This document shows positions 2,774-50,427 of a stretch of DNA of 54,958 nucleotides, piece after piece. The stretch comes from a virus. Lineage: Duplodnaviria > Heunggongvirae > Uroviricota > Caudoviricetes. The DNA is taken from the IMG/VR virus record IMGVR_UViG_2671180568_000004. The stretch is one strand, 5' to 3'. Position 1 is the first letter of the stretch; each line of letters opens with the position of its first letter. A model generated the notes under the pieces. That model had not been told where the DNA came from. It searched no databases and saw only the letters and a program-made list of their open reading frames with translations. Made by a program: the position numbers and the translations under genes.

Positions 2774-5154
2774 TAGATTGACTCCCCCATCTGAGCATCA
2801 GTCAATGCCTTGTGCCATATTCTGAAATTCCTGACATGACCAAATAAATGACGCAACCCGGCTGTAGTCTGGCCTCCAATACGGATAATTGCGGAGTTCT
2901 GAATATAGGACCATGTGGCTTTCTTTTCGCTGGATATACGCCCGTTACTTACTGAGCACGTAGACTGATCTGACTTTACACGCATCCCCATAACCATTTT
3001 TTCAAGCGATGCGTTTTCGTTTACCCGTCTGTTAGCCAAACCTATATCACAATAAGGAAATCCGTCGTAATCTGTTGAACGACCGAAGCCAAGAATAATA
3101 GCCGCTCCGGTTTGATGACCGCCGGTATCAAAAACACGCGGTGCTGCATTTGGCGTTTTATACCAGTTCTTATGTACCTCACAAAGAACCGTAAAAGGAA
3201 GATTATAAAGATTATTCTTAATTGGAACTGTAACTATATCGCTTGCGCGGGTCGCCGCCGTCGCTCCTGATATAATAAAAGATGATACACAAGGCCCATC
3301 TTCTACTTGTGGGGTGGCCAGATAAATATAGTCACCAGATACGGTTGCCCCGCTCTGCTTAGGAGAATACTGTATCTGAGAGCCTATTTTTAACTCCCCA
3401 TCAATTGCCTGAATTGTTGCCTCTGCAAAAATCCATCCGGTAGCTTCGTCCTTTCTGACTCTCGCTGTAATTCTTGAGGCAGCACCGCCTGTCATATTAA
3501 TTTCAAGCGTTTGTGTATCAATATACGCATCACCAAGAAAAGTTGTTGCGCTACCGTCATATTTATCAAACCGGATACGCAACCTTACCTGCAGTTCTGT
3601 TTTAAAACGACATGAGGTTGTCACGTGTTTATTATCGCCTGAGACATCAACTGACTTTGTTGCAGCAATTGATGCCATATTAATGGCTGAGGTTTGCCCA
3701 ATCAGAGAATCGTTGCAGACAAACTTTCCATAGGTAAAACCAAAATTATCCGTCCCTGTTTCGGGCACATCCATATTTGACGATCGCCCCCAACTGGCAG
3801 GGCTTTCCGAATTGAGCATGTAGTTTGTTCTTTGCCCCTCAATAAGCAGGCCATCACGTTCAAATCGTGGCTCGTCAATGGCAGCCTCTGTCAGCACACC
3901 AGATTTGTTAATATAGGTTGCTTTCGATGCACGTTTAAACTTAACAATCTTGTCGCCAGGCATCGTTATTTCATCGTCACCAATAACAATTTTTTTATAT
4001 GATGGCGAAAAGCCCGTAATCATATCCAGCGAATCGTTAAATGGTATCCACACATCAGGCAGCGGCTGTAAGACATATTTATACGGCTCCGCAGCCTGGC
4101 TTGCGTACTCTCTGGCTGCATCTTCGCTTGCTTTAGCTGCCGTCTGGCTTGCTGCCGATGCTTTCGCTGAGTTCGCAGCCGCTGTTTCGCTCACCTTTGC
4201 GTTGGTTTCACTGGTTTTTGCTGCTTTTTGACTGTTAGCTGATGCAGTGGCAGAAGCAGCCGCCGCGCTTGCAGAACTGGCTGCGGCACTCTCGCTTTGG
4301 GCCGCTGCATCCTGACTGCTTTTCGCCGCAGTTTCACTGGCTTTGGCATTCGTTTCGCTGGTCTTCGCTGCCGCCTGGCTGGACTTTGCGTTAGTTTCAC
4401 TCGTCTTCGCAGCTTTCTGGCTGTTAGCCGCAGCAGTTGCTGATCCAGCTGCTGAAGTCGCAGAACCGGCTGCCGCGCTCTCGCTTTGGGCTGCTGCAAC
4501 CTGGCTGTTTTTTGCTGCAGTTTCACTGGCTTTAGCATTCGTTTCGCTGGTCTTCGCTGCCGTCTGGCTGGACTTTGCGTTGGTTTCGCTCGTCTTTGCG
4601 GCTGTCCCGCTATTTTTCGCGTTGGTTTCTGATTTTTTGGCTGCTGTCGCGGAGTTTGCCGATGCAGTCTTTGAGGTCGCTGCCGCCTGTGCGCTGTTAG
4701 CTGCATTCGTTTCTGAGGTTTTCGCCGCGTTCTTCGATGATGCCGCTGCAGTTTCGGATTTCTTTGCCGCCGCTGCGCTCTGAGAGGCGGCTTCAGCGTT
4801 GCGTGCCGCTTCTTCCACCATCTGCTCAAAGCGGCGCAGTGCCTCCGGTCGGACATCATCCTCCGTCATGGCACCGAGAAAATCATTCAGCGTACCTGGT
4901 CTGGAACCTTCATAGACGGTAATGGTCCCGGCATGTGAAGGCGGAAAACCTTCAACCAGCAGGGTGACGCTGTACTGACCATGCTCAACATCCATGCTGT
5001 AACGTCCGGCTTCATCCGGATTTTCAGAAGCCACCGTGTTCACCAGTACCGTGGTGCTGTTACGCTTTGCCTTCAGTTGAATAGTGCAGTTCTGTATTGG
5101 TTTTCCCGCACCATCTTTCAGCACACCTGAGATTTTTACTGCTGCCATATCCAC
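2773..5154 (-). CDS. stf: side tail fibre protein (Stf-like) with Ala/Ser/Thr-rich repeat region
   Basis: 793 aa; N-terminus AVKISGVLKDGAGKPIQNCTIQLKAKRNSTTV...GFPPSHAGTITVYEGSRPGTLNDFLGAMTEDD matches the lambda Stf N-terminal domain as recalled; true start may be the ATG two codons in (MAAVKISG). Confidence 0.85.
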   Translation of the reverse strand: MDMAAVKISGVLKDGAGKPIQNCTIQLKAKRNSTTVLVNTVASENPDEAGRYSMDVEHGQYSVTLLVEGFPPSHAGTITVYEGSRPGTLNDFLGAMTEDDVRPEALRRFEQMVEEAARNAEAASQSAAAAKKSETAAASSKNAAKTSETNAANSAQAAATSKTASANSATAAKKSETNAKNSGTAAKTSETNAKSSQTAAKTSETNAKASETAAKNSQVAAAQSESAAAGSATSAAGSATAAANSQKAAKTSETNAKSSQAAAKTSETNAKASETAAKSSQDAAAQSESAAASSASAAAASATASANSQKAAKTSETNAKVSETAAANSAKASAASQTAAKASEDAAREYASQAAEPYKYVLQPLPDVWIPFNDSLDMITGFSPSYKKIVIGDDEITMPGDKIVKFKRASKATYINKSGVLTEAAIDEPRFERDGLLIEGQRTNYMLNSESPASWGRSSNMDVPETGTDNFGFTYGKFVCNDSLIGQTSAINMASIAATKSVDVSGDNKHVTTSCRFKTELQVRLRIRFDKYDGSATTFLGDAYIDTQTLEINMTGGAASRITARVRKDEATGWIFAEATIQAIDGELKIGSQIQYSPKQSGATVSGDYIYLATPQVEDGPCVSSFIISGATAATRASDIVTVPIKNNLYNLPFTVLCEVHKNWYKTPNAAPRVFDTGGHQTGAAIILGFGRSTDYDGFPYCDIGLANRRVNENASLEKMVMGMRVKSDQSTCSVSNGRISSEKKATWSYIQNSAIIRIGGQTTAGLRHLFGHVRNFRIWHKALTDAQMGESI
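4130..4790. repeat. in-frame coding tandem repeats inside stf (KTSETNAK/SSQTAAK motifs)
   Basis: repeated gctggtcttcgctgcc...gcgtt.gtttc blocks; protein repeats AAKTSETNAKSSQ; the antisense ORFs here are artefacts of the repeat. Confidence 0.7.
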
Positions 5155-29271: not shown

Positions 29272-32200
29272 TTATGATGATGCCGGTGCATTTATCTCCA
29301 GCACCAGGCTGCCGATATCGACGCCATACGCTGCATTTTTGGTAATATCCGTCAGCGTCAGCGCATTCAGCCCCAGTGTCAGACTGTCTTTTATGACCTG
29401 GAATGCCGGGCCAGCCACTCCATTCAGTTTCGGAGTAACCGTGGCACTGCCGGCGGTGAACACCAGCTCCAGCGTCTGCCAGTCGTTACTGTAATTCCCG
29501 AACTCGCCCAACTTTGTGTTTCCGGCTTTCTTGTGATGCATCAGATTCAGTTTGCCGTCTGTGGTCTGGGTGAAGAACGACATCAGGAACGGGTTACCAG
29601 TCCCGGTCATCGCCACGACGTCAGGTAACGCTACATCGGTATACAGATAAATTCCCAGACCGAACTGGTTGTTGGTCAGTGCGCCTGACAGTCGAAACTT
29701 ACAGCTCAGTCTGCCACCCCGTGTCAGCAGGGAGACTGCGTCATCCACCGGATGCATCAGGGACCAGGTTTTATTGCTCTGCTTGGTAACCTTAAACACA
29801 CCATCTTCCAGCGCAACACTGCCGCCGGTGATGGTCCAGCCCTGCGCAGCAGCCTCTCCGGCTGTCGGCAGCAGGGAGACTGTACGAACGGATGTGTCAC
29901 CATCAGACGGCCCCGATGGNNNNNNNNNNCGTCAGCGCATTCAGCCCCAGTGTCAGACTGTCTTTTATGACCTGGAATGCCGGGCCAGCCACTCCATTCA
30001 GTTTCGGAGTAACCGTGGCACTGCCGGCGGTGAACACCAGCTCCAGCGTCTGCCAGTCGTTACTGTAATTCCCGAACTCGCCCAACTTTGTGTTTCCGGC
30101 TTTCTTGTGATGCATCAGATTCAGTTTGCCGTCTGTGGTCTGGGTGAAGAACGACATCAGGAACGGGTTACCAGTCCCGGTCATCGCCACGACGTCAGGT
30201 AACGCTACATCGGTATACAGATAAATTCCCAGACCGAACTGGTTGTTGGTCAGTGCGCCTGACAGTCGAAACTTACAGCTCAGTCTGCCACCCCGTGTCA
30301 GCAGGGAGACTGCGTCATCCACCGGATGCATCAGGGACCAGGTTTTATTGCTCTGCTTGGTAACCTTAAACACACCATCTTCCAGCGCAACACTGCCGCC
30401 GGTGATGGTCCAGCCCTGCGCAGCAGCCTCTCCGGCTGTCGGCAGCAGGGAGACTGTACGAACGGATGTGTCACCATCAGACGGCCCCGATGGCGTGTCG
30501 CCGCCGGGTGAGGGTTTAATCTCCGGTGCGGTACCGCTGATGAAGGCGCTGGTTCGACCAACTGCGTTCAGAATAGCGGTTGCCAGGCGATCCGAAATAA
30601 TGCCCCTGCGCGCCCATGAACTGAAATGTGTCGGACGATTTGACGATACCCAATTACCATTACTACGGGATAGCGCGCCGTAATAACCTGCATCAGCAAT
30701 ATCCGGGTCTTCTGCCGGTAAGTTGGTGGGCGTGTTGTTGCCGTTACCGTCGGTCATGAACGGCACAAAGAAAACGTTGTCGCTCTCCCTGTTTTTGTAC
30801 GCGCCGTAGACGGAGTCATACTGTGTGCCGTATGTGTTTTTCCAGTAATACGTCGTGTCGCCACAAATCCACGGTACAACTGCAGCACTGCCGCCATGGC
30901 ACTGCGCGTTAAATCCGGAAAGGTCAGTACGGAACTGCTTCAGCATGGCCGTGAACAGGTCCGGTTGCTGTGCGTAGGTGGCAGCGCTCATGTCAAATTC
31001 GCCCTGCATCCAGCACACCGCCAGCAACACATTTTTCGGGTTCTTCTGTAATGCNNNNNNNNNNGAGGGTTTAATCTCCGGTGCGGTACCGCTGATGAAG
31101 GCGCTGGTTCGACCAACTGCGTTCAGAATAGCGGTTGCCAGGCGATCCGAAATAATGCCCCTGCGCGCCCATGAACTGAAATGTGTCGGACGATTTGACG
31201 ATACCCAATTACCATTACTACGGGATAGCGCGCCGTAATAACCTGCATCAGCAATATCCGGGTCTTCTGCCGGTAAGTTGGTGGGCGTGTTGTTGCCGTT
31301 ACCGTCGGTCATGAACGGCACAAAGAAAACGTTGTCGCTCTCCCTGTTTTTGTACGCGCCGTAGACGGAGTCATACTGTGTGCCGTATGTGTTTTTCCAG
31401 TAATACGTCGTGTCGCCACAAATCCACGGTACAACTGCAGCACTGCCGCCATGGCACTGCGCGTTAAATCCGGAAAGGTCAGTACGGAACTGCTTCAGCA
31501 TGGCCGTGAACAGGTCCGGTTGCTGTGCGTAGGTGGCAGCGCTCATGTCAAATTCGCCCTGCATCCAGCACACCGCCAGCAACACATTTTTCGGGTTCTT
31601 CTGTAATGCCGCTTTGGTGCGTGCGATCAGGTCCTGATATAACGGTTTACCCACACCCCAGCGTGCCGAATCCTGGCTGGCCCCCGTGTCCGCACTGAAT
31701 GTCCCCTCCGCGCCCTGGGTGAATGCCGAACCACCACGACAGCATGGTACCAGCAGGATCCCCGCGTTATTCGGGATATACGGAAGCAGTTTTTTGGCAA
31801 TATGTAAGCCCTGGCCGACACAGCCGTACTGCCCTTTGCTCAGGTCTGCCTTCGGATGATTCAGTGCGCTCATATCCTGAACATCATGCAGGCAGTGGTC
31901 TGCCGGAATGATGTCGTTAAATGCGCATGCTTTACCACCGGGAGTCACTGTGTTGCGACGGGCCAGTTGCTTAATGCGTGGGTGGGGCGCATCGTAAGAA
32001 TCCGGAAGCGGAAGCCCTTCACCGTAAGCCATGGCATTGGATTGCCCGGCCAGTACGATGACGTAGTACCACTCCGGCTCAGTTGCACCACTGACGACCA
32101 CATCACCTTCTGCTGCAATCGCCTGCATCAGGGTATAAGGGGTTATGGCCACCGGACTACCAAACGGCTGCCAGCCCTCTTTCATTTTATGTGTCAGCTT

Positions 32201-32272
32201 TTCCGCAAGATCTGACGGCGACGCCGCCCTGACAACATCATAGTGTTTAAATGCCATGGTTCTTTCCACCAT
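29272..32272 (-). CDS. prophage sialate O-acetylesterase-like protein (NanS-p-like); coordinates inflated by two scaffold duplications
   Basis: N-terminal MAFKHYDVVRAASPSDLAEKL...; esterase block VLAGQSNAMAYGEG; real length about 623 aa after collapsing the duplicated blocks; likely start ATG at 32257. Confidence 0.6.
29920..29929. other. N10 scaffold gap; 29356..29919 repeated verbatim at 29930..30493
   Basis: read directly. Confidence 0.9.
31055..31064. other. N10 scaffold gap; 30510..31054 repeated verbatim at 31065..31609
   Basis: read directly. Confidence 0.9.
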
Positions 32273-32517
32273 CTGAAAAATGATTCTTTAAAATACCTGA
32301 CATGTAATACAGAAAAAACACAAAACCATACCTTAAATAAAAACCTCATCATCAAGCAGATATGCATGGATAAACTACAAGACGAGATATAAACCACCCT
32401 GCATTTAAATAAACAATAAACAACATCAGAAAAATAATTCTGCTCTATGGTTTACAATCAAAAATATCATTTATACTTTTCAGAACATCACCAGCAAGGC
32501 ATAAACAAGGAAACTAA

Positions 32518-32853
32518 ATGAAGTGGATTGTGATTGATACAGTTATCCAGCCATCATGCGGAATATCTTTTTCAGTCATATGGAGTAAAATAAAATTAAT
32601 AATCTGGTATCAATCGGATGCTTTCTTACCTCCTGAAAGTATATTTACACTGACTCACACAGGCATCATGCTCAATAACAAAGTGCTACCTGTAACCATT
32701 TACAACGTAGTACCATTCAATAAAACATTATGGAATTTAATCAAAAACAGCCAGGAATGCCCTACAAATACAGATAACGTATTGAATGAATGCTTTAATA
32801 ACCGTTGCACTCTGCAAATATGTCCTTATGGGCTAAAACAACAAAGTCCATAA
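32518..32853 (+). CDS. hypothetical Cys-rich protein (111 aa) in an AT-rich island
   Basis: ATG with AAGGAAA RBS; candidate promoter TTTACA-15nt-TATACT about 50 nt upstream; opposite strand to the late operon; 7 Cys. Confidence 0.4.
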
Positions 32854-32888
32854 GCAGTTTACTCACATCTGACAAAATCAATATAAAC

Positions 32889-33069
32889 AGCCCCTCCGGA
32901 GAGGGGCTGGAGAGTGGCGCTATGTGCCATTGCATGGTGCCGGGTGCCTCCCGGTGAATTCAGTACCAGCACCTGAATCCGCGATTATCCCATATACCTA
33001 CTCGCTGATTACCCCTCCGCACAGGGGGATTCACCATGCGAAATTTTTTAACAAACTTCCCGCCGGCCA
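32889..33069. repeat. copy A of a ~180-bp element (hairpin AGCCCCTCCGGAGAGGGGCT plus conserved blocks)
   Basis: shares hairpin, GCATGGTGCC.GG.GCCTCCCGGT.AATTCAG, GGGGGATTCACCATGCGA and TTTTAACAAA...GCCAGACAAT.ATC with copy B. Confidence 0.7.
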
Positions 33070-33341
33070 GACAATAATCGCCAGCCTGAATTATGAGCAA
33101 CGTGGCATTTTACGGGAAAACTGTTTTCTGCAGTAAAAAGGCCCGCCGGAGCGAGCCTGGAAGGATAGCGGTCATGTGATGCCGGTTTCCCGGTAACTCA
33201 GCATCGGTATCTGAGTCAACGTTTTCTCTACTGGGTCATTTCCGATACGTTCCGCCTTCCGGCAGACTTTCATCACGTCAGAAAATATAGCACCCTGAGT
33301 AACAGGACAGTACTCAGAATTCAGGAAACTGTGACACATCC

Positions 33342-33539
33342 TGCACAGAAAAGCCCCTCCGGAGAGGGGCTGAAGTATAGCCTAATTTCTGTCTGTCGCA
33401 TGGTGCCAGGGGCCTCCCGGTAAATTCAGCCTGTCTACTGAATTTGCATGTTCTCTGGATCATACACTTTGCCAGATGCCCCGCCGCTGAGGGGGATTCA
33501 CCATGCGATGTAATTTTTAACAAATTCTCCGGCAGCCAG
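33342..33539. repeat. copy B of the same element, same orientation
   Basis: see copy A. Confidence 0.7.
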
Positions 33540-33739
33540 ACAATCATCAAGCTGTGGAATTGTGAGGTATTTAAAAATTTCAACGGGTAACTGATACCCT
33601 GCTAATCGCCTGATGCTTTCTTTTTCAGCAACGGGAAAGCAACAACCACACACCCGCCACCAAAACACCATCAGACAGCACCGACATTATCCGGCTGCTG
33701 AAGTCCACCATCACCACCAGAAACAACAGGAGTGCAACC

Positions 33740-33786
33740 ACAGCTGCTTAGAAGGCAATTGCTCTGTCCGGCTGAGCTAACAACGC
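33740..33786 (-). pseudogene. tRNA-Arg(UCU)-like 5' fragment (acceptor, D-arm and anticodon arm only)
   Basis: GCGTTGTTAGCTCAGCCGGACAGAGCAATTGCCTTCTAAGCAGCTG resembles argU up to the anticodon loop; no canonical T-arm or 3' acceptor strand. Confidence 0.35.
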
Positions 33787-33799
33787 ATGATGCAGATAA

Positions 33800-33876
33800 T
33801 GGACCGCCATCGGGGACTTGAACCCCGCGCAGCCAGCTTCGAAGGCTGGCGCTCTATCCCGATGAGCTAATGGCGG
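33800..33876 (-). tRNA. tRNA-Arg (anticodon UCG)
   Basis: cloverleaf by eye: acceptor CCGCCAT/ATGGCGG, D-arm TAGCTCATCGGGATAGAGC, anticodon loop CTTCGAA, T-arm GGGGTTCAAGTCCCC, CCA. Confidence 0.75.
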
Positions 33877-33883
33877 TATGTGA

Positions 33884-33959
33884 TGGTGGCCCTTGCTGGA
33901 TTTGAACCAGCGACCTGGCGATTATGAGTCGCTCGCTCTCACCACTGAGCTAAAGGGCC
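33884..33959 (-). tRNA. tRNA-Ile2/Met-type (anticodon CAU), ileX/ileZ-like
   Basis: GGCCCTTTAGCTCAGTGGTGAGAGCGAGCGACTCATAATCGCCAGGTCGCTGGTTCAAATCCAGCAAGGGCCACCA; near-identical in architecture to E. coli ileX as recalled. Confidence 0.85.
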
Positions 33960-34008
33960 GGGAGCAGAATAATAATGGTGCGTAATTAATTCTGCAATCT
34001 CATCCGTT

Positions 34009-35058
34009 TCAAACGATTAAATCCTGAACTTCCCTGACTGTCTGCTCAAAACGTCCGGTCTCCAGCTCAACACCAATCGCACGACGCCCCAGTGCCATCG
34101 CCGCTTTTACCGTTGAACCCGACCCCATGAAAAAATCCGCAACCAGATCACCAGGACGACTACTTGCGCTGATTATCTGCTGCAGCATTTCTGCCGGTTT
34201 TTCGCACGGATGTTTCCCTGGATAGTACTGCACTGGTTTATACGTCCACACATCGGTGTACGGCACCTGCACCGTCACACCGAAATACCGCCGCAAATTT
34301 TTATATTCACTCAGCAGTTCCATATACTGCCGGTTCAGCTCACTGTATGTGCTGACCAGCTGGTGGTGTGGCTTTTCCAGTTCCCCGCGCTGATGTTTCT
34401 CTTCTGCCACCCGGGCAAACAGCGACTGTAATTTCAGATAATCGCTTTCATTCGGCAACTGCCACTGACCGGCACTGAACCAGTGCGACACCATGTTTTT
34501 CTTTCCTGTGGCATCTGCAATCTGTTTTGCCGTTATCCCCAGGGCTGCGCGCGCATCACGAAAGTAAGAAATCAGCGGGGCCATCACATGCTGTTTCAGT
34601 GCACTGCCCTTCGCCGCATACCCGGCATCTTTCGGACGATACGGCCCCTGATAATGTTCCGCGAACAGAATGCGCTCTGTGGCGGGGAAATACGCCCGCA
34701 GGCTTTCCTTGTTGCATCCGTTCCAGCGTCCGGACGGCTTCGCCCAGATAATATGGTTCAGCACACTGAAGCGTTCACGCATCATGATTTCGATATCAGA
34801 TGCCAGGCGATGACCACAGAACAGGTAAAGACTTCCGGCAGGTTTCAGCACCCGCCAGAACTGCGCCAGACACTGGTCCAGCCACTTCAGGTAATCATCG
34901 TCGCCCTTCCACTGGTTATCCCAGCCCTCAGGCTTCACTTTAAAGTACGGCGGGTCCGTGACTATCAGGTCAACAGAATTTTCGGGTAACGACCGGATAA
35001 ATTCCAGGCAGTCGGCGTTGATTAACTCACAACTGGATATTTTTACAGTATTAAGCAT
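34009..35058 (-). CDS. DNA N6-adenine methyltransferase (Dam-like orphan)
   Basis: 349 aa; motif IV DPPY (VTDPPYF); C-terminal SAM-binding FFMGSGST. Confidence 0.85.
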   Translation of the reverse strand: MLNTVKISSCELINADCLEFIRSLPENSVDLIVTDPPYFKVKPEGWDNQWKGDDDYLKWLDQCLAQFWRVLKPAGSLYLFCGHRLASDIEIMMRERFSVLNHIIWAKPSGRWNGCNKESLRAYFPATERILFAEHYQGPYRPKDAGYAAKGSALKQHVMAPLISYFRDARAALGITAKQIADATGKKNMVSHWFSAGQWQLPNESDYLKLQSLFARVAEEKHQRGELEKPHHQLVSTYSELNRQYMELLSEYKNLRRYFGVTVQVPYTDVWTYKPVQYYPGKHPCEKPAEMLQQIISASSRPGDLVADFFMGSGSTVKAAMALGRRAIGVELETGRFEQTVREVQDLIV

Positions 35059-35194
35059 GGATCATTAAGCCTGTCTCTGATAGGCTCATTCTGCTTTTGC
35101 GCAAAGCAGTGGGCCTGAGGTTTGCTTGTGATCCGGACGCATGAGCAGATGGCTGGTGGGTGCCCCTAACACCCACCAGCCGCCCATTTACCAC

Positions 35195-35222
35195 AAATAA
35201 AAAAGCCTTCACTGCGGAAGGC
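35195..35222 (-). terminator. rho-independent terminator
   Basis: hairpin GCCTTC-CGCAGT-GAAGGC followed by TTTTTTATTT on the minus strand. Confidence 0.6.
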
Positions 35223-35406
35223 GTCTGTAACAACCGAACTGATAGTCTGCCAGACCCGCCATAACCAGCTGAGTCAGTATTAACTGGCAGCGTTCGCGTG
35301 AAAGGTAAGTATTCTGCGCTATCTCCCCGACTGTCGCCGGGTCGGTAACGCTTAATTCATTAAACACCACTCTGGCGGTTTCTGTCATATCCTGCTGTTT
35401 TAGCAT
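35209..35406 (-). CDS. hypothetical small protein (65 aa) immediately after tR'
   Basis: ATG with AGGAAAAG RBS; stop inside the terminator stem. Confidence 0.4.
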   Translation of the reverse strand: MLKQQDMTETARVVFNELSVTDPATVGEIAQNTYLSRERCQLILTQLVMAGLADYQFGCYRRLPQ

Positions 35407-35525
35407 GTCTTTTCCTTTTCCGGTTAACGTGACACACCAATAACTCTTGTCGAAAAAGCCAGCAAGCTGAAAGACAGGTATTCACCGCCACCAGCGCGTT
35501 TACTGTACTGACGCGATTTCAGTCA

Positions 35526-35625
35526 TAAAAAACCCGCCAGGCGGCGGGGTGTAAAAAATCTTCTAACGTCAGGCATAAAACGCCCATCGTTAGAGCAAAT
35601 TTACCACAGATTCGGGAAAAATCAA
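35526..35625 (-). promoter_or_regulatory. late promoter pR'-like element and tR' terminator downstream of Q
   Basis: -35 TTGATT, 16-nt spacer, -10 TAAATT just after the Q stop; then hairpin CCCCGCCGCCTGGCGGG plus T6. Confidence 0.6.
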
Positions 35626-35630
35626 CAACA

Positions 35631-36452
35631 CTATCGCGTTACCCTCTTTAACTGCCGCTCCGCCCATGCCTCTTCAATGTCAAACCGAACCACCAACGTA
35701 TCGTAAAAGCGTTTCACTGATTTTTTCCACGTATCAAGCGTGATAGCACTCGTCACTTTGCGTATGGCATTAAATGCCTCCGTTGATGGTAGTCTTTCAC
35801 AGCCACGACCACCACAACGCTGGCAGTCTCTGATAACAGGCATACCACGTTTTACCGACTCTTCACGATGAATGGCGACACCACGCCCACGGCAATCCTT
35901 ACAGGCGGTGGAAACCTCACCCTTTCCGCCACACTCCGGACAGGCAACTTTTACCACCTCCCTGACTTTTTTCCATTCTTCCCAGTAAGACGGATACACA
36001 CCTTTCGTACACTTTGCCCATACCGGCGGCTTACCATCCGGATACTGGACCTTGTTTGTAAAAACCTCGCTTTCAATAAATTTTTTTCCGTGACAGCAGG
36101 AGCACTGTTTTTTGCTCGCCGCGCTACGGGCATAATCTTCAAACGCATACGAAGCCATAATACGCATCACTGCCGGTTTTATTTCTGCCGGGAGTTTTCT
36201 TAACGCCGCCACGCGATCACACCGACTGAGTGCATATTCTGTCAGCAATTCTGTTGCCCGCTCTCTGTCATTCATACTAATGCCCATTTTCCCAAGGAAC
36301 GCAGAAAACCCCATCTCAGCCCGATTCTGTGTCATGCCCTGCGCGGCCATCACATCAGTGATACTCAGCGCATCTTTCGACGTTGAGGCCGATGCATCAG
36401 TCAGGCCGGGGGATTTTGGGGAGTAGTATTTCGGTAAATCTTCCAGTTTCAT
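35631..36452 (-). CDS. Q: late antiterminator Q (Cys-rich, zinc-binding type)
   Basis: 273 aa; multiple CxxC pairs; sits between rusA and the pR'/tR' element. Confidence 0.75.
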   Translation of the reverse strand: MKLEDLPKYYSPKSPGLTDASASTSKDALSITDVMAAQGMTQNRAEMGFSAFLGKMGISMNDRERATELLTEYALSRCDRVAALRKLPAEIKPAVMRIMASYAFEDYARSAASKKQCSCCHGKKFIESEVFTNKVQYPDGKPPVWAKCTKGVYPSYWEEWKKVREVVKVACPECGGKGEVSTACKDCRGRGVAIHREESVKRGMPVIRDCQRCGGRGCERLPSTEAFNAIRKVTSAITLDTWKKSVKRFYDTLVVRFDIEEAWAERQLKRVTR

Positions 36453-36829
36453 TTTTTGACCTGCTCTTCATGCATTATGGGGTAAATCTTCACCCCCATA
36501 CGTCCACCAGATACTGGCTGACCACGAACGATATTGATTTCATCAAACTGCTCATCGTCCATTAACACTCCCGCATGCGTCAGCGCATCCAGCGGTGCTT
36601 TCAGGATATTGTCCAGGTCGCGACGACGCTTATCCGGTGGCTCTGCAATCACCTTTATCGCCAGCCTTCCGGACAGGCTTAATTTCAGCCGCTGCTGGCG
36701 AACAATAAGCGCCACAGCCCGGCGATAACGCTTTCCCTCCTCCGAGATAAAATATGTGCTGCCACGGCGTCGCCAGTAAGTGTTCACCGTTGGCGGGTAA
36801 GGCAAAACAAATTCTATGCGTTCAGTCAT
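36449..36829 (-). CDS. rusA: Holliday junction resolvase RusA
   Basis: 126 aa; MTERIEFVLPYPPTVNTYWRRRG...DLDNILKAPLDALTHAGVLMDDEQ. Confidence 0.9.
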   Translation of the reverse strand: MTERIEFVLPYPPTVNTYWRRRGSTYFISEEGKRYRRAVALIVRQQRLKLSLSGRLAIKVIAEPPDKRRRDLDNILKAPLDALTHAGVLMDDEQFDEINIVRGQPVSGGRMGVKIYPIMHEEQVKK

Positions 36830-37885
36830 TTATGCTTTCCACTTCAGAACACCCGAATTTCTCGCGTGCATTAAAAAACGAATCAGCAACAACAGCTGGC
36901 TGCCGTGTTTTTCTTCAAAATCTTTTACCCCGGCGTGTAGTTCGCTATGGCATTTACGGCACAGCGGAATAACAAACAAATCATCAGCCTTTGTTCCCAT
37001 CCCTCCCAGTCCATGACCAATGATGTGATGCGGATCATCTGCCTGATTGCCACACGTCATGCATTTCTGCGTTTTTACCCAACGCGTGTATACAGGCATC
37101 TCTTCCCGTTGTGATTTCTGGCGCTGGAGATACTGAGCCGGTGACTCCGGATCAACGGCAATGCTGACCACCGTCTTTTCCTGTGGCGGGTTTTGCTGGT
37201 GAGCGTGAGGCAGCGGCGCAAGATTTTTTGTGCGCTGCTTCAGTATGCTGGTGGCGGTCTGCTCTCCCGGTACGATGTCGCTTTCACGGTACATTGAGCG
37301 GATTTTTTCCGCACGCAACCCCAGCGAACGACGTAATACCGCTTCCGGTAGCGCGTCCGCCACCTGATTGCGGACCGCCCACCAGGATAATTCAGCCAGC
37401 GATAATTCCCGTTCCTGCGAGCCATTCATTGCATGGCGTATGACGTCAATCATCCATGCAGACAGGTTTTGGTGAGCAAGTTGCCCGAGTGATTCGGAGG
37501 TCTGGTCGCGCAGTTGGTTGTCGCAGTGCCAGCACAACACCATTGCGCCGGTACCATAACGGTGAATGACGGTTTCACTGTGGTGATAATCGCCGTGTGG
37601 CCACTGGCAGGATTTAACATGGCGCAGTAACCAGTCAGACAATGCGCCAGCGCCACCAGCAGCACGAATCACTCGTTCGTCGCTGAAAAATGGCAGTAAT
37701 GATTTATCCTCCGCCAGCGGCTGGCGAACGGCAGGAACGACCCCGGACGGCAGATTACGCATGCTTTTCGGTTCCGGCTCCACCAGTACCCGGGTATTGT
37801 GGAATACCGGCATGGATTCACGGCCCGGCTTAACGATCACCAGCCCGAGTTCCGGTACCAGAACAGGTCGAAGTAATACCCGCAC
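36830..37885 (-). CDS. DUF968-like nin-region protein with C-terminal HNH-like Cys/His motif
   Basis: 351 aa; GTG start with GGAGGT RBS; CMTCGNQADDPHHI...CRKCHSELH. Confidence 0.65.
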   Translation of the reverse strand: MRVLLRPVLVPELGLVIVKPGRESMPVFHNTRVLVEPEPKSMRNLPSGVVPAVRQPLAEDKSLLPFFSDERVIRAAGGAGALSDWLLRHVKSCQWPHGDYHHSETVIHRYGTGAMVLCWHCDNQLRDQTSESLGQLAHQNLSAWMIDVIRHAMNGSQERELSLAELSWWAVRNQVADALPEAVLRRSLGLRAEKIRSMYRESDIVPGEQTATSILKQRTKNLAPLPHAHQQNPPQEKTVVSIAVDPESPAQYLQRQKSQREEMPVYTRWVKTQKCMTCGNQADDPHHIIGHGLGGMGTKADDLFVIPLCRKCHSELHAGVKDFEEKHGSQLLLLIRFLMHARNSGVLKWKA

Positions 37886-38326: not shown

Positions 38327-38482
38327 TTACTCCTCAGGTTCGTAAGCTGTGAAGACAGCGACCTCCGTCTGGCCGGTTCGGATTCGTACCTCGCAGAGGT
38401 CTTTCCTCGTTACCAGTGCCGTCACTATGACGGTTAAACAGATGACGATCAGGGCGATTAGCATCGCCTTTTGCTGCTTCAT
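38327..38482 (-). CDS. hok: Hok/Gef-family type I toxin (51 aa)
   Basis: MKQQKAMLIALIVICLTVIVTALVTRKDLCEVRIRTGQTEVAVFTAYEPEE; in-frame upstream extension to 38539 may be a mok-like frame. Confidence 0.85.
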   Translation of the reverse strand: MKQQKAMLIALIVICLTVIVTALVTRKDLCEVRIRTGQTEVAVFTAYEPEE

Positions 38483-38773
38483 AGCCTGCTTCTCCTTGCC
38501 TTTCGGCACGTAAGAGGCTAACCTACGTGTGTAGAGCATAGATATGGCCTCAGATTAATGTTAAGCGTCTTGCCGGACGCGTAATGTTAACTGGGGCTTT
38601 TCTCTATCTGCCTTTTGGTGTTCATGCCTGAGACAGATAGCCTCAAGCACCCGCTGCAATTCTACTTAACTCTCCTTTTCCCGCAAACCGTTTTTATCCC
38701 CAGCGGCAAATCGAATACACCACCAGCGCCACCGCCATCGCAATTCCTACCGTTGTTAATGCTTCAGGCCAGC

Positions 38774-42102: not shown

Positions 42103-42112
42103 NNNNNNNNNN
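42103..42112. other. N10 scaffold gap; 41874..42102 repeated verbatim at 42113..42341 (restart exactly at the IS end)
   Basis: read directly. Confidence 0.9.
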
Positions 42113-45622: not shown

Positions 45623-45632
45623 NNNNNNNNNN
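45623..45632. other. N10 scaffold gap; sequence after the gap restarts at the equivalent of 43738
   Basis: read directly. Confidence 0.9.
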
Positions 45633-50369: not shown

Positions 50370-50427
50370 TTTCTGGTGACGTTTGGCGGTATCAGTTTTA
50401 CTCCGTGACTGCTCTGCCGCCCTTTTT
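50370..50427 (+). ncRNA. dicF: DicF small RNA (ftsZ-targeting), with intrinsic terminator
   Basis: TTTCTGGTGACGTTTGGCGGTATCAGTTTTACTCCGTGACTGCTCUGCCGCCC plus T-run matches E. coli DicF as recalled; about 170 nt upstream of dicB as in Qin. Confidence 0.85.

Follow-up and report, generated by a model that had tools for sequence, protein, structure and literature searches.

A stx-negative lambdoid prophage carries iraL and tandem STnc100-family units between its tRNA genes and its esterase gene

Results

A variable cargo interval of known content

The late genes of the prophage in IMG/VR record IMGVR_UViG_2671180568_000004 (54,958 nucleotides, hereafter the window) lie on its minus strand, and a cargo interval of 1527 bp (~1.5 kb; positions 32273-33799), free of N runs, extends from the second tRNA gene to a sialate O-acetylesterase gene. 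We conclude, with a probability of roughly 0.9, that this interval represents the variable cargo ("moron") region in a stx-negative lambdoid prophage and that all of its content is of known kinds. An earlier note on this DNA, made from the sequence alone, had described the cargo as uncharacterized. That description does not hold: the 111-residue open reading frame (ORF) at its center is IraL (99% identity; family NF007393), and its structured elements are small RNAs (sRNAs) of the STnc100/PasD family. Both the lysogenic-conversion gene and the mosaic region that holds it are known, and everything in the interval has already been described or annotated.

The late region has the order typical of Shiga toxin (Stx) phages, as the note had recognized: Q antiterminator, methylase, tRNAs and esterase, followed further downstream by holin and endolysin. 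It was also right that the slot lacks an ORF of stx size, none being present in the ORF list between the tRNAs and the esterase. Searches of the whole window with Stx2A and Stx2B (tblastn) returned no significant remnant of either gene, the best matches having E values of 1.8 and 0.075 over 16-18 residues. With neither an stxA nor an stxB gene, the element does not belong to the Stx-converting prophages.

The 111-residue ORF is iraL

Alignment of the ORF to iraL of the uropathogenic Escherichia coli strain CFT073 reveals identity at 110 of 111 residues and at 334 of 336 nucleotides (99.4%), above the minimum of 95% that defines IraL (PMC4045071). The protein is likewise a member of NCBIfam family NF007393 ("anti-adapter protein IraM"), in which it scores 162.4 bits where the curated cutoff is 121, with residues 1-110 covering profile positions 1-113 of 114; the NCBI annotation pipeline (PGAP) and RefSeq give the identical gene the name 'anti-adapter protein IraM'. 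Judged by these identities, the ORF is IraL, an already studied anti-adaptor of RssB by which RpoS is stabilized in logarithmic phase. In a Pfam scan, neither this ORF nor five further small ones from the interval had a match, and NCBIfam recognized only the 111-residue ORF among the six. The remaining five (70, 55, 89, 57 and 55 residues) overlap the sRNA units or a DUF3927 remnant and were rejected as spurious, as was a partial "hypothetical protein" that PGAP places at 32924-33049 (+), over one of the STnc100 units (unit C).

The gene lies on the strand opposite the late genes within an AT-rich segment (G+C 0.33 over 32258-32878 versus 0.52 for the whole window, with a local drop to 0.29-0.36 at ~32250-32880), and its product has five cysteines, four of them within the last 31 residues, much as the earlier note had reported. 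The only relative of solved structure is IraM(1-78) in complex with RssB (PDB 8TWD), to which IraL aligns without gaps (E 2.5e-32); residues 1-78 of IraL are accordingly predicted to match the PmrD-like β-barrel fold. Among the RssB-contact residues, C14, F18, W30, I61 and Y62 are kept and four positions are substituted (T13S, L75I, H63N and I64V), although these contacts were defined for IraM, while IraL binds RssB differently.

Deletion of iraL in CFT073 lowers the RpoS level and halves the half-life of RpoS in logarithmic phase, and IraL co-purifies with RssB, the two-hybrid contact being RssB's N-terminal domain (PMC4045071). Expression of the gene has been demonstrated experimentally in that strain (PMC4045071; Hryckowian et al., mBio 2014), and iraL is common in uropathogenic Escherichia coli and Shigella and rarer in enterohemorrhagic and Shiga toxin-producing E. 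coli (STEC) (PMC4045071). By analogy with this 99%-identical protein, the window protein would be expected to bind RssB and to stabilize RpoS.

The iraL promoter and the 3′ end of the gene

The earlier note had further ascribed to the ORF a promoter-like element of its own. The sequence ACATCACCAGCAAGGCATAAACAAGGAAAC, determined for CFT073 by rapid amplification of 5′ cDNA ends (PMC4045071), is present at window position 32485, which corresponds to the mapped transcription start site, and the 133 nt that precede the iraL ATG are identical to those of CFT073 at 130 positions (97.7%), above the 96% that, together with the mapped start, delimits IraL in PMC4045071. The promoter-like element thus corresponds to a promoter that experiments have mapped in a near-identical allele. 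Its -35 and -10 hexamers were read from the sequence and not from a consensus scan; that scan missed the iraL promoter because the spacer is 15 nt, and returned four hits elsewhere against 3.6 expected by chance.

At their 3′ ends (window 32853-32909), iraL and STnc100 unit C converge on a single palindromic hairpin, GCCCCTCTCCGGAGGGGC. The hairpin that forms the unit C terminator begins 35 nt beyond the iraL stop codon and is followed by a T run on the minus strand only, so transcripts of iraL may run on, antisense, into unit C.

iraL and stx belong to separate sub-slots

The interval from tRNA to esterase differs among all six loci that were compared, namely 933W, phage 1717, CFT073, FAH, phi296 and this window. 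The 933W interval reads ileZ-argN-argO, stx2AB, STnc100 (208 bits), AsxR on the opposite strand, and the esterase; that of the Stx2c phage 1717 reads three tRNAs, stx2cAB, STnc100, an opposite-strand IraM-family gene, and the esterase. STnc100 lies directly downstream of stxB in both, and has been described 75 nt downstream of stx2B in Stx2 phages (PMC12370729). These two layouts place iraL in a separate sub-slot, between the last STnc100 unit and the esterase, and, since an IraM-family gene and stx coexist in phage 1717, iraL is not a replacement for stx. Thus, the idea of cargo replacement at a recombination hotspot, put forward in the earlier note, is borne out insofar as the region is mosaic, variable and recombination-prone, but not in the sense that iraL has taken the place of the toxin genes.

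Alignments across these loci suggest a layout of two independent variable sub-slots. The first, from argO to the last STnc100, would accommodate stxAB, or terB-DUF3927 with extra STnc100 units, or DUF3927 alone, or nothing; in the window, this stx-equivalent position holds a DUF3927 remnant and two extra STnc100 units. The second, from the last STnc100 to the esterase, would carry cargo that is always on the opposite strand: an anti-sRNA of the AsxR/AgvB type, iraL, or an IraM-like gene. The FAH and 933W alignments lose homology to the window exactly from the STnc100 terminator to the esterase ATG, and both have AsxR-type matches at the position of the window iraL cassette. Within window positions 31000-37000, AsxR and AgvB (Rfam RF02703 and RF02702) had no match at E values up to 1.

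Searches by tblastn found the IraM-type gene in 41 Stx2c/Stx2a phage records, including 1717, 2851 and Stx2a_WGPS, and iraL proper in four phage records, all of them non-Stx. The phage 1717 gene is located at 4501-4824 of its locus (L008), behind stx2B and STnc100 and on the opposite strand. A full-text literature search combining IraM, prophage and Shiga toxin returned no title or abstract on a phage IraM-type gene, nor did the literature searched contain an experimental study of it.

Three tandem STnc100-type units, one of them diverged

Repeat finding in the interval recovers a repeated element, which Rfam identifies as STnc100 (RF02076, gathering score 47 bits). Units A and C score far above this threshold and belong to the family; unit B, which lies between them, scores 30 bits and by this criterion does not. 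The earlier note had counted two structured elements of ~180 bp; the element is real, but there are three units, the third being the diverged unit B. All three are arranged in tandem on the late strand, and each ends in an intrinsic terminator consisting of a G+C-rich hairpin and a T run, the terminator scan having found nine terminator-like sites against 1.6 expected.

An alignment of nine sequences, including copies from 933W, phage 1717, phi296, PhiR5_2 and mEp460, yields a consensus of 35 base pairs, of which 11 are retained through changes on both sides. Unit B is ~55% identical to units A and C and supplies the pair changed on both sides in several helices of this consensus; despite its low identity, it therefore keeps the architecture of the family. 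The counterpart of unit B at the same position in FAH is 87% identical. Unit C is 95% identical to the single STnc100 copy of CFT073, and its single-sequence fold has a z score of -3.0.

Comparison of the tandem units of the window (32879-33536) with those of FAH (1788-2480 of locus L009) showed that the outer units are shuffled among prophages, window unit C being 81% identical to FAH unit A′ versus 67.5% to FAH unit C′; this pattern indicates recombination among tandem STnc100 units.

STnc100 is related to PasD1 and PasD2 (bioRxiv 10.64898/2026.05.13.724894), with reports covering both the homology and the dependence on Hfq (bioRxiv 10.64898/2026.05.13.724894; PMC8550237). The mapped 5′ end of PasD2 aligns with GCATGGTG of the STnc100 units, an alignment which suggests that the first ~30 positions of the RF02076 model may be promoter rather than transcript. 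Upstream of these 5′ ends, on the minus strand, units A and C carry TTGTCT-N18-TAAAAA and unit B carries TGCTATATT (within 33537-33575, 33308-33340 and 33068-33105). By extension from PasD1 and PasD2 in enteropathogenic E. coli (EPEC), the window units would be expressed as discrete, Hfq-associated RNAs. A reading of the units as PasD rather than STnc100 was rejected: PasD2 of strain E2348/69 shares the 5′ helices, but its 3′ half differs. On the plus strand, a TTAACA-N16-GACAAT motif lies antisense to the 5′ ends of units C and A (33048-33075 and 33517-33544), matches of this type in the region being, in total, at chance level.

A 654-bp deletion and the truncated tRNA

The earlier note had also described a 3′-truncated remnant of tRNA-Arg(UCU) at one edge of the interval, and truncated it is. 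Its 42 nt match argO of 933W, CFT073 and FAH through the anticodon loop, with one polymorphism relative to 933W, after which identity ends abruptly. Only nucleotides 1-42 are present, short of a complete cloverleaf with acceptor stem and T arm, and neither ARAGORN nor Rfam calls a tRNA at 33745-33786, only two tRNAs being called nearby.

All local BLAST alignments break at 33745, which puts the junction at 33744/33745. FAH, found by a search with the junction region, has homology that stops exactly at 33744; its order is an intact argO with terminator, a terB-like gene, a 54-residue DUF3927 ORF, three STnc100-type units, an AsxR/AgvB-type element and the esterase. The alignment with FAH contains one clean gap of 654 columns in the window, from argO nucleotide 43 to approximately codon 8 of DUF3927. 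The DUF3927 remnant is 5′-truncated at the junction, frameshifted by a 1-nt gap and short of a complete ORF (about 43-54 residues), and PGAP still calls a 28-residue piece of it at 33625-33711. Measured against this one undeleted relative, the event is a 654-bp deletion that took the 3′ part of argO, the terB-like gene and the start of DUF3927. The deletion allele is itself frequent: a 221-nt probe spanning the junction is covered to at least 80% in 422 of 5426 complete genomes.

A small hydrophobic DUF3927 ORF directly precedes an STnc100/PasD unit, on its 5′ side, in CFT073, FAH, E2348/69 (with PasD2) and, as a remnant, the window (window 33625-33744 with unit A; L003 13053-13439; L009 2275-2710; L010 1459-1829).

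The segment as a whole is no rarity. Many complete E. coli genomes contain the exact 1527 bp (100% identity), and coverage of the segment, which PGAP annotates, reaches at least 80% in 1006 of the 5426 genomes. The earlier note had held that its reading would fall if the third tRNA proved intact and the segment proved a common, well-annotated spacer of stx-negative prophages with a silent ORF. The segment is indeed common and annotated in such prophages, but the tRNA is truly cut and the ORF is expressed in CFT073.

Feature map and assembly quality

Coordinates are collected in Table 1. The tRNA with anticodon CAU is labeled Met by ARAGORN, whereas PGAP (in the identical segment) and the 933W record have tRNA-Ile, ileZ; it is identical to 933W ileZ. 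An Rfam "Plastid-ycf2" match antisense to a tRNA and weak matches to P26 and YrlA were dismissed as below threshold.

Table 1. Features of the cargo interval and its surroundings (window coordinates).
Feature	Position	Strand	Basis and details
SASA-family sialate O-acetylesterase, NanS-p type, downstream border of slot	29903..32257	-	annotation of identical segment
AT-rich iraL cassette, STnc100 unit C to esterase start codon	32258..32878	.	GC 0.33; alignments
iraL promoter and 5′ untranslated region	32451..32517	+	TTTACA 32451-32456, 15 nt, TATACT 32472-32477, 7 nt, +1 at 32485
iraL coding sequence, 111-aa RssB anti-adaptor, IraM/IraL/RssC family	32518..32853	+	CFT073 identity; NF007393
STnc100-family sRNA gene, unit C	32879..33067	-	RF02076 132.5 bits, E 6.4e-30; terminator 32888-32909
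Diverged STnc100-like unit B	33132..33307	-	RF02076 30 bits, E 0.0011; terminator 33139-33158; extended -10-like TGCTATATT upstream
STnc100-family sRNA gene, unit A	33343..33536	-	RF02076 138 bits, E 2.5e-31; terminator 33352-33371
DUF3927 small-membrane-protein ORF, 3′ part, pseudogene	33625..33744	-	FAH alignment; tblastn in two frames
argO remnant, first 42 nt of tRNA-Arg(UCU), dead	33745..33786	-	match to 933W, CFT073, FAH
tRNA-Arg(UCG), argN-type, intact	33800..33876	-	ARAGORN; Rfam 58.4 bits
tRNA, anticodon CAU, ileZ-type tRNA-Ile2	33884..33959	-	ARAGORN; Rfam tRNA 72.5 bits
DNA methyltransferase	34009-35058	-	late gene
Q antiterminator	35631-36452	-	late gene

The window is a scaffolded draft with four N10 linkers (29920-29929, 31055-31064, 42103-42112 and 45623-45632). 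Ahead of each of the first three lies an exact copy of what comes after it (564, 545 and 229 nt), indicating that overlapping contigs were concatenated and that these direct repeats are false. For the fourth, at 45623, a 104-nt copy of the post-gap sequence lies ~1.9 kb upstream, short of the gap. Two linkers with duplicated flanks fall within the esterase ORF (29903-32272), which is therefore inflated, at 789 residues versus 618 in an identical complete genome; comparison with the annotated identical segment moves its start from 32272 to 32257. The interval 32273-33799 is unaffected by these artifacts.

Elsewhere in the prophage we noted the sok antitoxin RNA of a hok/sok module at 38477-38652 (-; Rfam 117 bits) and DicF at 50371-50422 (+; Rfam 76.7 bits), each of which has a counterpart in the CFT073 potB prophage.

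Discussion

The explanation we favor is that of a cargo region in which iraL, running opposite to the late operon, would be driven by a sigma-70 promoter of its own and so could be expressed from a repressed prophage. IraL would then bind the adaptor RssB, block the delivery of RpoS to ClpXP and raise RpoS during growth, as expected from the near-identical CFT073 gene, making iraL a probable lysogenic-conversion gene. The STnc100 units, whose terminators are visible in the sequence, would be transcribed in the lysogen from promoters of their own and, after induction, be read through by Q-modified polymerase. The cut argO and DUF3927 remnants represent the two ends of one 654-bp deletion, and loss of argO would have no consequence beyond that of a rare-codon tRNA.

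Because the deletion starts inside argO, the tRNA immediately upstream of stxA in 933W, and the late region is otherwise Stx-phage-like, one might suppose that the prophage descends from an Stx phage and that the event that cut argO also removed stxAB. FAH, however, has terB-DUF3927 at this position and not stx, and the far side of the junction is a DUF3927 ORF at 95% identity; moreover, the 654-bp gap is too small for stxAB (about 1.24 kb) plus a terB-like gene. Together with the lack of any stx2A or stx2B remnant in the window by tblastn, the FAH alignment led us to reject a stx-loss scar, which we consider the least credible of the alternatives. Hardly more plausible is the proposal that iraL is here a silent or decaying passenger without effect on the host. 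Its neighbors argO and DUF3927 are already degraded and its promoter and leader differ from those of CFT073 at three positions, but the ORF is intact with a single residue changed in 111, the -10, -35 and start-site sequences are all present, and the allele is 100% conserved in many unrelated complete genomes.

A further possibility, somewhat less improbable than these two but still unlikely, is that the STnc100-like units act in cis on the late transcript, as terminators or processing sites that silence the lysis genes until Q read-through. The units do end in strong late-strand terminators and separate pR′ and the tRNAs from the esterase, holin and endolysin genes; they keep a conserved place immediately 3′ of stxB or DUF3927, and their promoters are assigned by inference. 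Against this, their structural homologs PasD1 and PasD2 are abundant, Northern-verified, Hfq-dependent EPEC prophage sRNAs, encoded just upstream of a sialate esterase and with targets identified by RIL-seq in uninduced EPEC, and STnc100 RNA has been found in STEC vesicles by reverse transcription quantitative PCR (PMC12370729). A conserved multi-helix structure upstream of the terminator is also unneeded for termination, and roles in cis and as an sRNA are compatible with one another.

Several observations nevertheless weigh against our preferred account of a cargo region with an active iraL and three sRNA units. Unit B falls below the Rfam gathering score, and its single-sequence fold is marginal relative to shuffled sequences (z = -1.87). 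The iraL upstream region departs from that of CFT073 at 3 of 133 nucleotides, including the base after the -35 hexamer (32457, A versus T, just 3′ of TTTACA) and position -2 (32483, A versus G), the third being 32515 (+31, T versus C). A -35 point mutation of undefined effect has been reported in some strains, in iraL2 of JJ1886 among them (PMC4045071), and the window allele may be the same one. That iraL and the three sRNA units are expressed in this strain is extrapolated from homologs, and the scheme of two sub-slots derives from six loci compared by hand, not from a census.

As a more speculative extension, which we think considerably more likely to be wrong than right, the second sub-slot could be a dedicated opposite-strand slot that always carries a lysogen-active regulator of host global regulation, such that Stx2c phages bring their own RpoS stabilizer along with the toxin; separately, unit B could be a distinct sRNA with targets of its own. 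The cargo of the sub-slot would be either an anti-sRNA of the AsxR/AgvB kind, which sponges core sRNAs, or an anti-adaptor for RssB, whether iraL or the IraM-type gene found in Stx2c phages.

As a discovery, the interval carries little weight: characterization of iraL dates from 2014, Rfam already includes the sRNA family, and hundreds of complete genomes carry the exact segment with annotation. Two aspects may so far have been under-described, the two-sub-slot layout and the IraM-type gene found in Stx2c phages. The analysis corrects the map, in that iraL-type anti-adaptors and stx are neighbors in adjacent variable sub-slots and not alternatives. If the IraM-family gene of some Stx2c and Stx2a phages is active, carriage of a toxin phage would be tied to the stress and acid resistance that depend on RpoS, a modest hypothesis.

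Comparison with known systems

One close counterpart is the potB prophage of CFT073, a lambdoid prophage. Its 111-residue iraL gene matches that of the window in position and direction: opposite in strand to the late genes, it follows the tRNA cluster and a single STnc100 copy and precedes an esterase remnant. Where CFT073 has an intact argO, a full DUF3927 ORF, a single STnc100 copy and a truncated esterase, the window's argO is cut, its DUF3927 ORF is reduced to a remnant, its STnc100 units number three and its esterase, assembly artifacts aside, is full length.

IraM of E. coli K-12 (b1160) belongs to the same family, NF007393, and is 63% identical to the window protein over 107 residues without gaps; the two have five conserved cysteines in common, and most of the residues defined as RssB contacts in IraM recur in the window protein. 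IraM is nonetheless a different paralog. Mg2+ starvation induces IraM, which touches the two domains of RssB (PMC10844676; structure 8TWD), whereas IraL acts in unstressed logarithmic phase and contacts only the N-terminal domain (PMC4045071). The K-12 gene adjoins e14, and the homology of its surroundings to the window is limited to the coding sequence, with no STnc100 and no vestige of the slot in its flanks.

With PasD1 and PasD2 (EcOnc13), the window units share helices, a terminator and a position upstream of a sialate esterase. They differ in being three in tandem, including the diverged unit B below the Rfam threshold, and in lacking the region of the proposed PasD seed, UGUGAG, which lies in the 3′ half.

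Among the Stx phages, 933W follows the same scheme as the window (tRNAs, cargo, STnc100, an opposite-strand element, a nanS-p esterase, holin and endolysin), with stx2AB and AsxR where the window has the DUF3927 remnant, two extra STnc100 units and iraL. In phage 1717, the product of the IraM-family gene, gp43, is 75% identical to window IraL and is encoded in the same sub-slot and orientation, and nucleotide homology with the window is unbroken from the esterase through gp43/iraL into STnc100. By the criterion of at least 95% identity, gp43 counts as neither iraL nor iraM but as a third sequence type, and it resides in the same phage as stx2cAB.

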